From NCBI RefSeq assembly GCF_008000775.2, contig NZ_CP042905.2:3450001-3482000 (forward strand): DNA of 32,000 nt, written 5' to 3'. The notes below the pieces were generated by a model, which had not been told where the DNA came from, searched no databases, and saw only the letters and a program-made list of their open reading frames with translations. Position numbers and translations under genes: made by a program. Source of the stretch: Promethearchaeum syntrophicum. Lineage in GTDB: Archaea; Asgardarchaeota; Lokiarchaeia; Sigyniarchaeales; Promethearchaeaceae. Below, in pieces: positions 18,655 through 30,466 of this stretch; within the stretch, counting starts at the first letter, position 1; the number at the start of each line of letters is the position of its first letter.

Positions 18655-19515
18655 CTAATCTTTAAGCAATACATTTAACTCAGCTTGGGAGAATACGGGA
18701 CCATCAATACACACAAATTTACTTCCTATATTGCACCTTCCACATTTTCCAATACCGCATTTCATCCTCATTTCAAGTGAGAGAAAAACTTGTTCATCAA
18801 CAAATCCTAATTCGTGGAGAACTGGAGATGTGTACTTAATCATGACTGGTGGACCACACACAAATGCCATAGCATTTTTCGGACTAGGAGCAACTTCTTT
18901 TGTAATTGTTGGAACAAACCCTACCAACTTTTTCCAATCTGGATGTTCGCGATCTATGGTTAAATGGAGATTAATATCATCTCTTTTTCCCCACTCTTCC
19001 AAATCTTCTTTATAGCAAAATTCTCCTGGATTGCGGCATCCATAGATTATAGTAATATCTCCAAATTTTGATCGATTATTTCCATGTAAAAGATATACAA
19101 TAAAAGAACGTAGAGTGGTAAAGGCAAACCCGCCACCAATTATTACTATATTTTTTCCTTCTGCTTCTTTGAGTGGCCAACCATTTCCAAAAGGTCCGCG
19201 AATACCAAGAGATTTCCCTTTTTTTGAATCATGAAGACGATTTGTTACTTTTCCAGTTTTCTTAATTGTAAAAAGTAAGTAATCTTCTTCTGTTGGTGAA
19301 CTTGCAATACCTATTGGAGATTCACCAATACCAAATTCTGTAATCTCTGCAAATTGTCCAGGTTTAAAATTTTCAAAGAATTTTTCTTTATCCGCAATTT
19401 CATTAAAAGTTAATTTAAAAGTTTTTAAATCGTTTACTTCGTTTTCTGAATCTATATCTTCTATTGTAACCAATGAAGGAATATAGGGATTATCAAGTTC
19501 GTGTTTATGATTCAT
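18655..19515 (-). CDS. FAD/NAD(P)H-binding oxidoreductase with a C-terminal [2Fe-2S] site (FlxA / sulfhydrogenase gamma HydG / AsrB-like)
   Basis: Ferredoxin-reductase-type layout: GESPIGIASSP (FAD), NIVIIGGGFAFTTLRS (NAD(P)-binding) and C-terminal MKCGIGKCGRCNIGSKFVCIDGP (PyrK-type Cx4Cx2C...C). Confidence 0.8.
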   Translation of the reverse strand: MNHKHELDNPYIPSLVTIEDIDSENEVNDLKTFKLTFNEIADKEKFFENFKPGQFAEITEFGIGESPIGIASSPTEEDYLLFTIKKTGKVTNRLHDSKKGKSLGIRGPFGNGWPLKEAEGKNIVIIGGGFAFTTLRSFIVYLLHGNNRSKFGDITIIYGCRNPGEFCYKEDLEEWGKRDDINLHLTIDREHPDWKKLVGFVPTITKEVAPSPKNAMAFVCGPPVMIKYTSPVLHELGFVDEQVFLSLEMRMKCGIGKCGRCNIGSKFVCIDGPVFSQAELNVLLKD

Positions 19516-19530
19516 GATTTTCTAACCACA

Positions 19531-20637
19531 TTATGCTTTTTCTGCTGTTTCAACTACCGTTTTAAGTGTTTCTCTGATGTCACGATTAGTAGGACACACT
19601 TTAATACAACGCCCGCAACCAACGCAACCCAGAATTTTATAATTTTTAAGATAATAATTAAATTTATGATAAATTCGCTGTCTTGTTCTTTCTCTACCTG
19701 AATTTCGAGGATTATGCCCAGATGCTTCAAGTGTAAAAATTGACGTTTGACAATTATCCCATATTCTGACCCGTGTTCCTTCATTTTTATCATATTTATC
19801 CTGCACATCAAAACAATGGCATGTAGGACAAATGTAACTGCAAGCGCCGCAAGAAAGACATTTACGACTTACGACTGACCATATATCACTCTCAAATAAA
19901 CCATCGAGATCCTTTTCAATGTTATCCAAATTAATATTAAATTGAATCTTATCACGCGATGATGATGCCCATTCTTCTTTTCTTTTAAGATCGGCTTGTT
20001 CTACATCGGGATACTCTTTTACATATTTATTAAAGATGCTTCCTTTTTCCGAGGTAATTTTAAAGATATATTTATCCCCCAGATCGAATAAAATCGCATC
20101 TAATCCTTCAGAAGAGAATGGGTCACCACCTACTGAAGTGCAAAAGCACGTACTCATAGGTTCGTTGCAGGCTAATCCAATTAATAGAGTTTTATTCCTT
20201 TTGTTGAAATAGTAAGGATCACTATATTTTCCTGATGAGAAAAAGGTATCGAGGATTTTATAACTTCGCGCATCACAACTTCTGATACCAAAAATTACTT
20301 GATCATCAATAATTTCTTCTTTCTCTTTTATCTTTATTTTATTATCTTCTTTTTCAAATGAATAAAGCACTTCGTTTTGTGGAAAGAGAAATTTTTTGGG
20401 AGAGATTCTTAAATTTTGATATTCGGGGAATTGATATTCTTCATTATCTAAGTCAAGATAACCAAATTCTACTTCATTTTCAGCCTTTTTTGGAACTATC
20501 ATCTTAAAATCTTTGTATATCCCCTTGATTAAGGAATCTAATTTATCTTTTGGAATAATCTTCTCAATTGTTTGCTGTTGATCTACCTGATTTTTTTGAT
20601 CATTTTGGTTTTTTTGCGTTTTTGCTTTTTTTACCAT
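19531..20637 (-). CDS. Iron-sulfur protein, FlxB / sulfhydrogenase beta HydB / AsrA-like
   Basis: 368 aa with AAGGGGGA upstream of the ATG. Cluster motifs are CLSCGACSYICPTCHCFD and CVGCGRCIKVCPTNRDI. Length and motif placement resemble HydB/AsrA. Confidence 0.75.
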   Translation of the reverse strand: MVKKAKTQKNQNDQKNQVDQQQTIEKIIPKDKLDSLIKGIYKDFKMIVPKKAENEVEFGYLDLDNEEYQFPEYQNLRISPKKFLFPQNEVLYSFEKEDNKIKIKEKEEIIDDQVIFGIRSCDARSYKILDTFFSSGKYSDPYYFNKRNKTLLIGLACNEPMSTCFCTSVGGDPFSSEGLDAILFDLGDKYIFKITSEKGSIFNKYVKEYPDVEQADLKRKEEWASSSRDKIQFNINLDNIEKDLDGLFESDIWSVVSRKCLSCGACSYICPTCHCFDVQDKYDKNEGTRVRIWDNCQTSIFTLEASGHNPRNSGRERTRQRIYHKFNYYLKNYKILGCVGCGRCIKVCPTNRDIRETLKTVVETAEKA

Positions 20638-20654
20638 TTATATTCCCCCTTCTA

Positions 20655-28949: not shown

Positions 28950-28976
28950 TTTATTAAGCCTCCTTTCTCAATATTT

Positions 28977-29897
28977 TTACTCTGTCGAAATTATTTTCAG
29001 CTCTTGCAACAATTTTTTTGGTTTATTTCCGTGAAATTTCAAACCTAATTCTTTATAATTGTATCCTAGTGCCAAAGCTACTAATTCTGTTAGATATAAA
29101 ACAGGAAATTTAAATTCTGTTCCAAATATCTTATTTACTGCTTTCTGTTGATAATCAAATTGTAAAAAGCATGAAGGACATACGACTGTTATACAATTTA
29201 CACCTGCATTTTTCATAGCAGTAAGTTTATTATGAAGAAGTTTATACCCAAGATCTTTATCAGTTTTTAAAAGAGGACTACCACAACACATCAATTTTGT
29301 TTCAAAGTCAAGACTTTCTGCCCCTAAAACCCGAACTATCTCATCAACAGTTGTAGGTTCAAACGGATCATCCCATTGAATAATATCTGAAGGGCTTAAG
29401 AAATGACACCCATAGTGAACTGCAACTTTTAATCCATTCAAAGGTTTAACAATTTTAGTTTTAAGATTGTCAAGATTCTCATATAATAGTTGTGCTCCGT
29501 GTTTTACTTCAACCCTTCCATCTAATTTTGTATCAATTTTTGATAGATTCTCATTAACCTCAATCATTTTTTCAGGTTCTTTAGCTAAAATATGATCTAC
29601 CATCTTTAATGTTTCAACACAGCCAGAACAGAGACTAATTATATCATCTTTTTTATTTTCAACCAGGGTTAAATTTCTTGCCCCTAAAGTTAACCAAGCT
29701 GTTTGATCTACCGCAGGAATTCCCGTTGGATCTGGACAGCATGAAGCTCCCTCCATATTGGTCAATTTAATATCTAAATCTTCGAATACTTTTTTCGCAG
29801 AACTTTCTATAAATGGCAACCTAGCTGGAATCACGCAACCTAAAAACAATTTATGATTGAGATCACTTTTAATATTACTTTTAGTTTTTCCACTCAT
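28977..29897 (-). CDS. hdrB: Heterodisulfide reductase subunit B-like (two CCG domains)
   Basis: CCG motifs are GASCCPDP...LCSGCVETL and LMCCGSPLL...VVCPSCFLQF. The start overlaps the hdrC stop by 1 nt (TAATG). Confidence 0.9.
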   Translation of the reverse strand: MSGKTKSNIKSDLNHKLFLGCVIPARLPFIESSAKKVFEDLDIKLTNMEGASCCPDPTGIPAVDQTAWLTLGARNLTLVENKKDDIISLCSGCVETLKMVDHILAKEPEKMIEVNENLSKIDTKLDGRVEVKHGAQLLYENLDNLKTKIVKPLNGLKVAVHYGCHFLSPSDIIQWDDPFEPTTVDEIVRVLGAESLDFETKLMCCGSPLLKTDKDLGYKLLHNKLTAMKNAGVNCITVVCPSCFLQFDYQQKAVNKIFGTEFKFPVLYLTELVALALGYNYKELGLKFHGNKPKKLLQELKIISTE

Positions 29898-30424
29898 TAT
29901 TTTCCACCATCTTTTTCGGTTTTTGTTGGAGCCTCGAAACGGAGTAACTTATCAAATCCAATGCTTTTCAACAAAGTATTAATTTCTTTGGGATCTGCGG
30001 TTTTATATTCTTCAAGGCCTAATTGCCCCCTCCTCTTCATTATGGGATCGGAAAATGGCAAAGCAATTCCAGTTTCTAATACGCTTATCGCTTGAGAGTT
30101 GAATGCATCGGGAATTTTTCCCGCTTTCACACAGGAATTTTTTATCACGTCAAAAATTTCTGTTAATTCAACTTTTTGTGGACAAACCTCTACACATTTC
30201 TGACATGTAAGGCAATACCAAACATTAGGTTGTTGGAGATTGATTAATTTGTCCTTTAAACCGAGAAGCGAGGCTTCAATAAGTTTACGTGGATTAAAAT
30301 CTCCGTTAGTAAGTTGAGCCACAGGGCAAATACCGGTACACGTAGCACATTGATAACAATAATTCAATGATGCATTAAAACCCCGGATTTGGTTTCTAAA
30401 ATCATAATCGATGGTTAGAGTCAT
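29897..30424 (-). CDS. hdrC: Heterodisulfide reductase subunit C-like (2 x [4Fe-4S])
   Basis: CYQCATCTGICPV and CLTCQKCVEVCPQ. The ORF opens at ATG 30466. I prefer ATG 30424 (MTLTIDYDF) because GAAGGGA lies 7 nt upstream and a TATA-like box overlaps the longer start. Confidence 0.8.
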   Translation of the reverse strand: MTLTIDYDFRNQIRGFNASLNYCYQCATCTGICPVAQLTNGDFNPRKLIEASLLGLKDKLINLQQPNVWYCLTCQKCVEVCPQKVELTEIFDVIKNSCVKAGKIPDAFNSQAISVLETGIALPFSDPIMKRRGQLGLEEYKTADPKEINTLLKSIGFDKLLRFEAPTKTEKDGGK

Positions 30425-30466
30425 TAATATCCCTTCATTTTTTTTATGTAAATAATTGATCATCAA

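Follow-up and report, generated by a model that had tools for sequence, protein, structure and literature searches.

Two pseudo-dimeric HdrA units and a predicted docking-type MvhD in a conserved Flx-Hdr variant of Promethearchaeum syntrophicum MK-D1

What does an archaeal cluster do that combines two HdrA-MvhD sets of the heterodisulfide reductase (Hdr) type with an NAD(P)H-type flavoprotein, and that contains no hydrogenase? This question is raised by ten genes in a 32,000-nucleotide (nt) stretch (the window; positions 3450001-3482000) of the closed 4.32-Mb chromosome of Promethearchaeum syntrophicum MK-D1, one of the few cultured Asgard archaea, a group in which the balance between NAD(P)H, ferredoxin, H2, and formate is the basis of syntrophy models of eukaryogenesis. 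A first-pass annotation, made from the letters of the DNA, had proposed ten minus-strand genes that run from hdrC to flxA, and this order holds: ten consecutive open reading frames (ORFs) lie on the minus strand at 18655-30424 with refined starts (the first ORF is open to 30466), and Pfam and NCBIfam profile searches return the named families. They encode HdrC- and HdrB-like proteins, the modules A1 and B1 of a first, split HdrA unit, an extended MvhD, a second, fused HdrA unit (A2B2), a short MvhD, FlxC, FlxB, and FlxA; all coordinates of these genes given below refer to the minus strand and to the numbering of the window. The IS110 copies of this chromosome are spaced as in Supplementary Table 6 of Imachi et al. 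(2020) once a rotation of the origin by ~573 kb and indels of a few kb are allowed for, which identifies it as the published MK-D1 chromosome with different coordinates. Imachi et al. (2020) list the genes in their Supplementary Table 4 as DSAG12_03717-03726, namely FloxA, FloxB, FloxC, FloxD, HdrA, MvhD, HdrA, HdrA, HdrB, and HdrC, with FloxA labeled as FAD-binding, FloxB as 4Fe-4S, FloxC as FrhB-related, and FloxD as MvhD-related, and the function of the cluster is given as unknown (Supplementary Table 4, Note 5). The central Flx-Hdr interpretation is correct but was thus already published as annotation. Two anciently duplicated, asymmetric HdrA-MvhD units that are conserved across Lokiarchaeia are not described there, and what is new here is a distinct conserved Flx-Hdr variant with two pseudo-dimeric HdrA units and an MvhD that we liken to docking-type adaptors.

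The sections below show which genes the locus contains, how their domains are built and folded, which ligands are conserved, and how synteny and phylogeny relate the units. We consider it rather probable that the locus encodes an oxidoreductase that is linked to NAD(P)H, performs flavin-based bifurcation or confurcation of the HdrA type, and is coupled to ferredoxin and to some thiol/disulfide. We prefer this reading because the family and fold assignments of all ten proteins agree with it and the Fe-S and flavin ligands are kept, because FlxC has the fold of FdhB and ElpB, subunits that dock to MvhD-HdrA, because the loss of HdrA domains is complementary, as in the tandem and fused HdrA of ANME (anaerobic archaea that oxidize methane), in type II HdrA, and in BamE, and because the gene order is conserved in Asgard genomes and the published FloxABCD/Hdr annotation agrees. 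The starts of hdrC, module B1, flxC, and the short mvhD were refined by homologue alignments; before refinement, the ORFs of module B1, FlxC, and the short MvhD comprised 576, 346, and 171 amino acids (aa). With the refined starts, the successive junctions from hdrC to flxA measure -1, 27, -8, -8, 11, 13, 7, 17, and 15 nt, in agreement with the overlaps of 1-8 nt and gaps of 7-27 nt with Shine-Dalgarno (SD) sites claimed before, and purine-rich SD-like motifs precede most starts of the ten-gene cluster. From this arrangement we infer that the ten genes form one operon for a soluble oxidoreductase of the Flx(Flox)-Hdr type.

Anatomy and history of the HdrA-MvhD units

The first-pass annotation had counted two complete HdrA-MvhD sets, which profile searches and a table of key residues bear out. 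It had also divided the first hdrA into a module A and a module B, and this stands in so far as there are two half-HdrA genes; they are not, however, the two halves of one ordinary HdrA but rather complementary degenerate protomers that imitate an HdrA dimer. A1 (27621..28949, 442 aa) aligns to residues 144-569 of the solved HdrA 5odc_A (E 5e-118). Its thioredoxin-reductase (TrxR) domain bears the CxxC motif and contains the inserted ferredoxin domain, and the protein has neither the N-terminal domain nor the C-terminal ferredoxin domain. B1 (25958..27628, start ATG 27628, 556 aa) aligns to residues 1-238 and 377-649 of 5odc_A, skipping the inserted domain, and consists of an N-terminal Fe-S domain, a TrxR domain that lacks both CxxC and the ferredoxin insertion, and a C-terminal ferredoxin domain. 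In unit 2 (22139..25147, 1002 aa; NCBIfam HdrA2 with 984 bits in three stretches, 5odc_A with E 2.5e-195), a module A2 (about residues 1-435, ~23843-25147) is joined to a module B2 (about residues 436-1002, 22139-23842); the fused protein is ~45% identical to the split A1/B1 pair and follows the same complementary plan. When we tabulated the ligands over 12-15 orthologues per HdrA module, the A modules always had the Cys194/Cys197 CxxC and all eight cysteines of the inserted ferredoxin, and the B modules were the exact complement, whereas GxGxxG, Glu356, Lys409, and the four cysteines of the TrxR cluster are retained in all four TrxR modules. The complementary plan with two TrxR domains therefore holds in the split unit, in the fused unit, and in every orthologue tabulated, and on this pattern of residues each HdrA set is best described as a predicted asymmetric pseudo-heterodimer with a type II/BamE-like plan.

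The logic of complementary loss is known from tandem and fused HdrA of ANME and Moorella (PMC9012536), and type II HdrA, too, follows a plan in which a heterodimer takes the place of a homodimer (PMC12054007). In the MK-D1 units, as in the type II and tandem HdrA of ANME and methanogens, one TrxR module has lost the N-terminal domain and the other Cys197/CxxC, and the ferredoxin domains are lost in a complementary way, too; with BamE, the units share an N-terminal TrxR domain that bears CxxC and the inserted ferredoxin domain. Unlike in BamE, whose second FAD lacks the hallmarks of bifurcation, both TrxR modules of the MK-D1 type keep Lys409 and Glu356 in each of the tabulated orthologues. Furthermore, the partner in MK-D1 is Flx, whereas type II HdrA and BamE are accompanied by FdhB/Molybdop, MetFV, or BamGHI, and two pseudo-dimer units occur inside one MK-D1 operon. 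In solved Hdr complexes, the FAD of one protomer is served by a mobile arm of the partner protomer, and in the structure of BamE the N-terminal TrxR1 carries the bifurcating FAD and TrxR2 is structural (bioRxiv 10.64898/2026.04.10.717634). By analogy with these structures, module B would represent the mobile arm, with its N- and C-terminal domains and MvhD, and module A would contribute the bifurcating FAD, the CxxC, the exit through the inserted ferredoxin, and the cluster that faces HdrC. In each unit, the arm of module B should then feed the active flavin, which would be the one in module A, and as one module would supply the arm and the other the FAD and the exits, each unit would contain one circuit and not two.

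Both MvhD proteins retain the five MvhD cysteines, and both cores superpose on MvhD/ElpC. The short MvhD (21637..22152, 162-171 aa, probable start ATG 22125; Pfam FlpD with E 7e-54) is the FlxD equivalent. The extended MvhD (25159..25965, 268 aa; Pfam FlpD with E 1e-51) carries a cysteine-free C-terminal extension of ~125 aa that is kept in 14 aligned homologues. Its AlphaFold2 model, with a predicted local distance difference test score (pLDDT) of 82, consists of the core, a helical linker, and a C-terminal winged helix-turn-helix; in Foldseek searches, the core matched 5odc_D, 7bkb_F, and 8rvu_F (TM ~0.87), and the tail matched winged helices of the ArsR/SmtB type, weakly, with E ~1e-2. A similar architecture has been described for BamF, an MvhD whose extension exceeds 100 aa and has a winged helix that docks BamI, a neighboring subunit for electron input (bioRxiv 10.64898/2026.04.10.717634). 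[quoted passage not shown] On the basis of this model and analogy, the extended MvhD is a putative BamF-like, docking-type adaptor.

Conservation was assessed by searches over 400 Asgard genomes, and 20 regions of ~20 kb were compared for gene order. FlxC homologues were found in 201 of the 400 genomes and in 120 of the 135 genomes of the largest family searched, with close relatives in Promethearchaeum sp. and Candidatus Harpocratesius repetitus. The extended MvhD occurs in 104 of the same 135 genomes, and its extension, searched alone, was detected in 125 of the 400, mostly in open frames of 255-280 aa. The order hdrC, hdrB, A1, B1, extended mvhD, fused A2B2, mvhD, flxC, flxB, flxA is present in at least 13 Asgard genomes and spans the family, the order, and the class of MK-D1 as well as one other family of the phylum; few redox modules of this order are kept as widely as the cluster. 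There are variants, too: unit 1 is fused in one genome (L041), three HdrA units occur in L002 (2763-9548) and L043 (7952-13965), where the extra unit has its own extended MvhD in L002 and none of its own in L043, and other loci have a simpler hdrCBA-mvhD-flxCBA form. In five loci (L052:6091-7185, L053:6125-7249, L054:12943-14049, L055:12805-13908, and L041:11568-12890), a true FrhB-family gene with a 2x[4Fe-4S] region, FrhB_FdhB_N (PF04422), and FrhB_FdhB_C (PF04432) lies between hdrB and A1, a position at which MK-D1 has no such gene. In a maximum-likelihood tree of 67 HdrA modules, A and B modules are separated with a support of 100, and within each of them unit 1 parts from unit 2 (support 96-100), whereas the third units derive from recent copying of unit 2. 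The differentiation of A and B is therefore older than the duplication of the units, and the duplication is older than the sampled Lokiarchaeial families.

Outside this group, FlxC homologues with 40-45% identity are annotated from metagenome-assembled genomes (MAGs) of Chloroflexota, Victivallales, Planctomycetota, and Proteobacteria, and metagenome contigs with a GC content of 0.42-0.58 carry a fused hdrA, mvhD, flxC, flxB, and flxA together with an HdrD-like gene; one of these contigs, L091, has the double-unit form with the extended MvhD. Judging from their GC content and from the MAG annotations of the FlxC homologues, the higher-GC contigs with the single-unit core are probably bacterial. 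A separate observation concerns L082, L089, and L095 (GC ~0.47), in which the fused hdrA upstream of mvhD-flxCBA looks interrupted: residues 2-122 are matched ~2.8 kb upstream of the stretch that corresponds to residues 51-999, and this could reflect the insertion of a gene, an intein, a miscall related to selenocysteine, or a duplication.

Donor module, acceptor end, and proposed electron path

The first-pass annotation had taken the donor to be an NAD(P)H-type flavoprotein with two Fe-S proteins, similar to Flx, and the NCBIfam and PDB matches of FlxA and FlxB are in line with such a prediction. FlxA (18655..19515, 286 aa) is a HydG/AsrB/PyrK-like FAD and NAD(P)H flavoprotein with the Pfam domains NAD_binding_1 and DHODB_Fe-S_bind, and it matches 9nez_C, the gamma subunit of Pyrococcus furiosus sulfhydrogenase I, over residues 8-278 (E 1.5e-53). 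Its C-terminal CxxxxCxxC...C motif corresponds to the 2Fe-2S cysteines 253, 258, 261, and 269, and with the FAD/NAD-binding fold and these four cysteines retained, FlxA is predicted to have the nucleotide-binding capacity on which the earlier interpretation depended. FlxB (19531..20637, 368 aa; Pfam Fer4_22 with E 8e-33) is an Fe-S protein similar to the sulfhydrogenase beta subunit and AsrA, with matches to NF040833 HydB (E 6e-53) and to 9nez_B, the sulfhydrogenase beta subunit (E 3e-45). The module thus resembles the NAD(P)H:Fe-S module of P. furiosus sulfhydrogenase I (9NEZ) and AsrAB in having a HydB-like FlxB and a HydG-like FlxA, but the MK-D1 cluster has no hydrogenase alpha-delta (HydAD) genes, and there is no AsrC gene among the ORFs of the window. 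FlxC (20655..21629, start ATG 21629, 324 aa) is an Fe-S subunit with the FdhB/ElpB fold: its sequence matches in the PDB were 9t1s_M and 7bkb_E (E ~1e-18), the best folds for its AlphaFold2 model (pLDDT 81) were 7bkb_E and 8rvu_E, and the protein consists of a degenerate FrhB-like N-terminal half with conserved cysteines and a C-terminal 2x[4Fe-4S] region. FdhB and ElpB are the subunits that dock the donor to MvhD-HdrA in solved complexes (PMC12350162). MK-D1 FlxC shares this fold, that of the linkers from donor to MvhD/HdrA, with the Fdh-Hdr-Fmd (7BKB) and Elp-Hdr (8RVU) complexes of methanogens, and differs from them in that HydB/HydG-like FlxB and FlxA stand upstream of FlxC in place of FdhA/ElpA.

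The closest counterpart of the whole cluster is FlxABCD-HdrABC (Flox/Hdr) of Desulfovibrio vulgaris and other anaerobes, which Ramos et al. 2015 and Pereira et al. 2011 reportedly described. In MK-D1 we find a flavoprotein FlxA, the Fe-S proteins FlxB and FlxC, a gene for an MvhD-like FlxD directly upstream of flxC, and hdrABC in the cluster. Compared by description, the two systems share seven clustered kinds of subunits (a flavoprotein of the NAD(P)H/FAD/2Fe-2S kind, a pair of Fe-S proteins, an adaptor similar to MvhD, and HdrABC) and a proposed logic in which NAD(P)H is the mid-potential partner of an HdrA-type bifurcation. They differ in that the gene order is mirrored in MK-D1, that the ordinary HdrA of ~650 aa is replaced by two pseudo-heterodimeric units, one split and one fused, that there is a second, extended MvhD, and that no adjacent alcohol dehydrogenase genes were found. 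Flox/Hdr of anaerobes is also treated in PMC4287179, PMC5947623, and PMC7015854, and a Hdr/Flox cluster with two hdrA genes has been reported for Syntrophobacter fumaroxidans (PMC5947623).

The cluster had been described as free of hydrogenase and formate dehydrogenase genes, and we find no [NiFe] subunit gene in the window or its flanks and no catalytic gene of a hydrogenase or formate dehydrogenase next to the cluster; hydrogenase or formate dehydrogenase genes adjoining it off-window can be dismissed, as both flanking genes lie inside the window on the other strand and encode RidA and a methylase-like protein. The co-encoded [NiFe] subunits of the MvhADG-HdrABC hydrogenase complex are thus absent here. 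The sole [NiFe] large subunit (PF00374) of the closed genome is encoded ~250 kb away, in a locus on the minus strand of the chromosome (~3730650-3737300) that consists of an mvhG-like gene (453 aa), hdrC, hdrB, and mvhA (445 aa) and lacks an hdrA and an mvhD. It is immediately preceded, on the same strand, by a DsrH-like gene, two DsrE/F-like genes, and one gene for a YeeE/YedE-type sulfur transporter; DsrC/TusE was not found in the genome, and the DsrE/F/H-like neighbors hint at a sulfur-relay link for Hdr in MK-D1.

For the electron path of the NAD(P)H-linked enzyme, we infer the cofactors, the direction of flow, NAD(P)H as the donor, and ferredoxin and a disulfide as the partners from the homologous systems. 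FlxA, with FAD and 2Fe-2S, would exchange a hydride with NAD(P)H, and FlxB and FlxC would relay the electrons to the short MvhD, from whose 2Fe-2S cluster they would enter HdrA, whose bifurcating FAD would split the electron pair. The low-potential branch would lead over the cluster of the N-terminal domain and the inserted ferredoxin domain to ferredoxin, and the high-potential branch over the cluster of the TrxR domain to HdrC, HdrB, and finally some disulfide or persulfide. The reverse direction—confurcation—would be equally possible in a syntrophic amino-acid fermenter such as MK-D1.

Several observations weigh against this assignment. Pfam FrhB gives no match on MK-D1 FlxC, and the protein is ~90 residues shorter than FdhB, which makes an F420/FAD site doubtful; its FdhB-like fold would allow FlxC to be a true F420/FAD-binding FrhB subunit, its length and the missing Pfam match speak against this, and PF04432 is present in some FlxC homologues. 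The transcript data do not help: a public RNA-labeled run, examined over 17000-32000, assembles into contigs of up to 89 kb and shows a flat depth of ~360 on genes, on spacers, and on both strands, and the published values of reads per kilobase per million (RPKM) are likewise flat, with ~150-350 for every gene including tRNAs (Imachi et al., 2020). Both the run and the RPKM table behave like genomic DNA and neither support nor refute the operon. One hdrBC pair and one flxABC set serve two HdrA units, a stoichiometry that is unexplained. Moreover, all three kinds of Hdr subunits stay under the NCBIfam equivalog cut-offs. The HdrA models reach 477, 518, and 984 bits against a cut-off of 1100. 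The HdrC-like protein (29897..30424, 175 aa, start ATG 30424 preceded by an SD-like motif; Pfam Fer4_8) has a 4Fe-4S dicluster domain with two CxxCxxCxxxC motifs and matches TIGR03290 with E 1.6e-31 and 109 bits (cut-off 160), and the HdrB-like protein (28977..29897, 306 aa; Pfam CCG in two stretches with E 2e-27) has two CCG domains with both CCG motifs kept and matches TIGR03288 with E 2.2e-87 and 293 bits (cut-off 345). The substrate therefore need not be a heterodisulfide at all. Finally, a disulfide carrier was not found: the first-pass annotation had noticed that no CoM/CoB or DsrC genes lie in the window, and this extends to the closed MK-D1 genome for DsrC (PF04358; E. coli control positive) and for ComA and McrA (controls positive), all of which gave no match, with the CoB synthesis genes not searched.

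These last points open the question of the acceptor. In D. vulgaris, DsrC is said to have been proposed as the bacterial disulfide acceptor of Flx-Hdr, together with an NADH-dependent activity and a role in ethanol/NADH metabolism, and the lack of DsrC sets MK-D1 apart from that system, just as the scores under the equivalog cut-offs and the lack of ComA and McrA, markers of CoM metabolism, set it apart from the CoB-CoM HdrABC of methanogens. It is a tentative possibility that the HdrBC-like end passes its high-potential electrons not to a low-molecular-weight heterodisulfide but to a protein partner, a sulfur-relay persulfide (TusA/DsrE-type), or another carrier. The missing CoM, McrA, and DsrC genes and the low scores of HdrB and HdrC speak for it, as do the DsrE/DsrF/DsrH-like and YeeE-type genes that adjoin the hydrogenase-hdrCB locus, a SirA/TusA gene beside another hdr locus in the table of Imachi et al. 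(2020), and the precedent of BamD, which delivers electrons to ETF in class II benzoyl-CoA reductase; against it, the ten-gene operon itself contains no sulfur-relay gene. The thiol/disulfide partner of Hdr enzymes in non-methanogens is a long-standing question, which a closed genome without DsrC, ComA, and McrA sharpens. As a side observation, the double-unit cluster on the metagenome contig L091 (GC 0.49) ends in a gene for an HdrD-like protein of 386 aa (Fer4 and CCG), and it is preceded by a gene whose product, labeled "putative redox-active protein" (C_GCAxxG_C_C), might be a thiol partner in that organism (the two positions on L091 are 1764-2504 and 12876-14036).

Why two HdrA units

The presence of two HdrA units in one operon can be explained in two ways. 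The first assumes two separate bifurcating cores that work in parallel or as alternatives: one would consist of unit 1 and the extended MvhD, the other of unit 2, the short MvhD, and FlxABC, and they would share HdrBC and possibly ferredoxin. The donor of unit 1 would be docked by the winged helix and would be encoded elsewhere in MK-D1, for instance as an FrhB-family protein or as the MvhAG hydrogenase. Other contigs commonly carry single-unit clusters (fused hdrA, mvhD, and flxCBA with a gene of the HdrD- or HdrBC-like kind), so that unit 2 is likely self-sufficient; in several Lokiarchaeial clusters, the FrhB-family gene with PF04422 and PF04432 stands between hdrB and unit 1; and the sole [NiFe] locus, mvhG-hdrC-hdrB-mvhA, has no hdrA/mvhD of its own. 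However, no donor gene stands beside unit 1 in MK-D1, other hdrA-mvhD pairs of the genome could serve the hydrogenase, and the tight translational coupling of the ten genes and the strict co-conservation of the units are more simply explained by one assembly. We regard two parallel complexes as a possibility of some weight, though not one that we would expect to hold.

The second explanation, which we find doubtful, is a serial, hierarchical bifurcation in one linear super-complex with the order FlxABC, MvhD, HdrA unit 2, extended MvhD, unit 1, and HdrCB. By structural precedent, the hand-over from unit 2 would most plausibly occur at its low-potential inserted ferredoxin domain, and two bifurcations in series would make, or in the reverse direction consume, electrons far below the potential of ferredoxin. 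The conserved gene order corresponds to this chain, the donor genes always adjoin unit 2 and hdrCB always adjoins unit 1, and unit 1 specifically is accompanied by the extended MvhD, a conserved feature. Furthermore, units 1 and 2 form separate, well-supported ancient clades in the trees of both A and B modules, which points to differentiated roles. There is also precedent, as class II benzoyl-CoA reductase couples two bifurcation modules and contains BamF, whose winged helix serves to dock a further electron module. For clusters in which type II HdrA is accompanied by an extra HdrA, Lyu et al. suggested that bifurcation takes place twice. Against the serial model, we estimate from textbook potentials that bifurcating again on the high-potential branch would need an acceptor above about +70 mV, and that doing so on the low-potential branch would result in electrons of about -800 mV, for which the locus encodes no consumer. 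In addition, the three-unit relatives (L002 and L043) and the FrhB-family gene beside unit 1 suit parallel donor arms as well.

Taken together, the conserved order of the genes, the differentiation of the paralogues, and the presence of an adaptor similar to BamF favor one assembly with electrons flowing from unit 2 to unit 1, and the single-unit clusters, the FrhB insertions, and simple energetics make parallel arms equally possible. The most far-reaching version, in which both units are one linear machine and an HdrA-type bifurcation feeds a second one via the winged-helix MvhD in a homotypic, hierarchical double bifurcation or confurcation, appears unlikely to us. If true, it would be central to the redox economy of Lokiarchaeia, as a donor at the level of NAD(P)H would reach, or be fed from, potentials well below that of ferredoxin. 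For the NAD(P)H-linked oxidoreductase that we propose, the anatomy with two differentiated pseudo-dimers, a BamF-like adaptor, and an FdhB-fold connector yields concrete hypotheses for structural and enzymatic work, and the findings tie Asgard metabolism to recent evidence that bifurcation modules can be stacked.

Borders of the cluster, neighboring genes, and other hdr loci

Between hdrC and the divergent RidA gene (30785-31183, plus strand) lies an AT-rich intergenic region (30425..30784) that is presumed to contain the promoter of the operon. At the other end, a T10 run about 15 nt past the flxA stop (18630..18654, read on the minus strand) may represent a terminator of the archaeal oligo-T kind, in overlap with the convergent DNA-methylase-like gene (17179-18645, plus strand) at its 3' end. 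Further genes of the window include Snf7/ESCRT-III (11408-12097), and four ORFs are without a Pfam match, two large ones at 4750-7251 and 7414-10059 (833 and 881 aa) and two small ones at 10954-11349 and 31348-31608, the latter with 86 aa and rich in cysteine.

The MK-D1 genome contains at least seven further hdr loci. One of them is a second NAD(P)H-type Hdr cluster in the region 3000000-3011000 (plus strand, 1494-9237 within the region), which corresponds to DSAG12_03218-03223 (Imachi et al., 2020) and encodes HdrC (188 aa), an FrhG-like protein (258 aa), an 824-aa HdrA with a fused MvhD, FlxB' (358 aa), FlxA' (293 aa), and a 612-aa HdrB-containing protein, with no FlxC.

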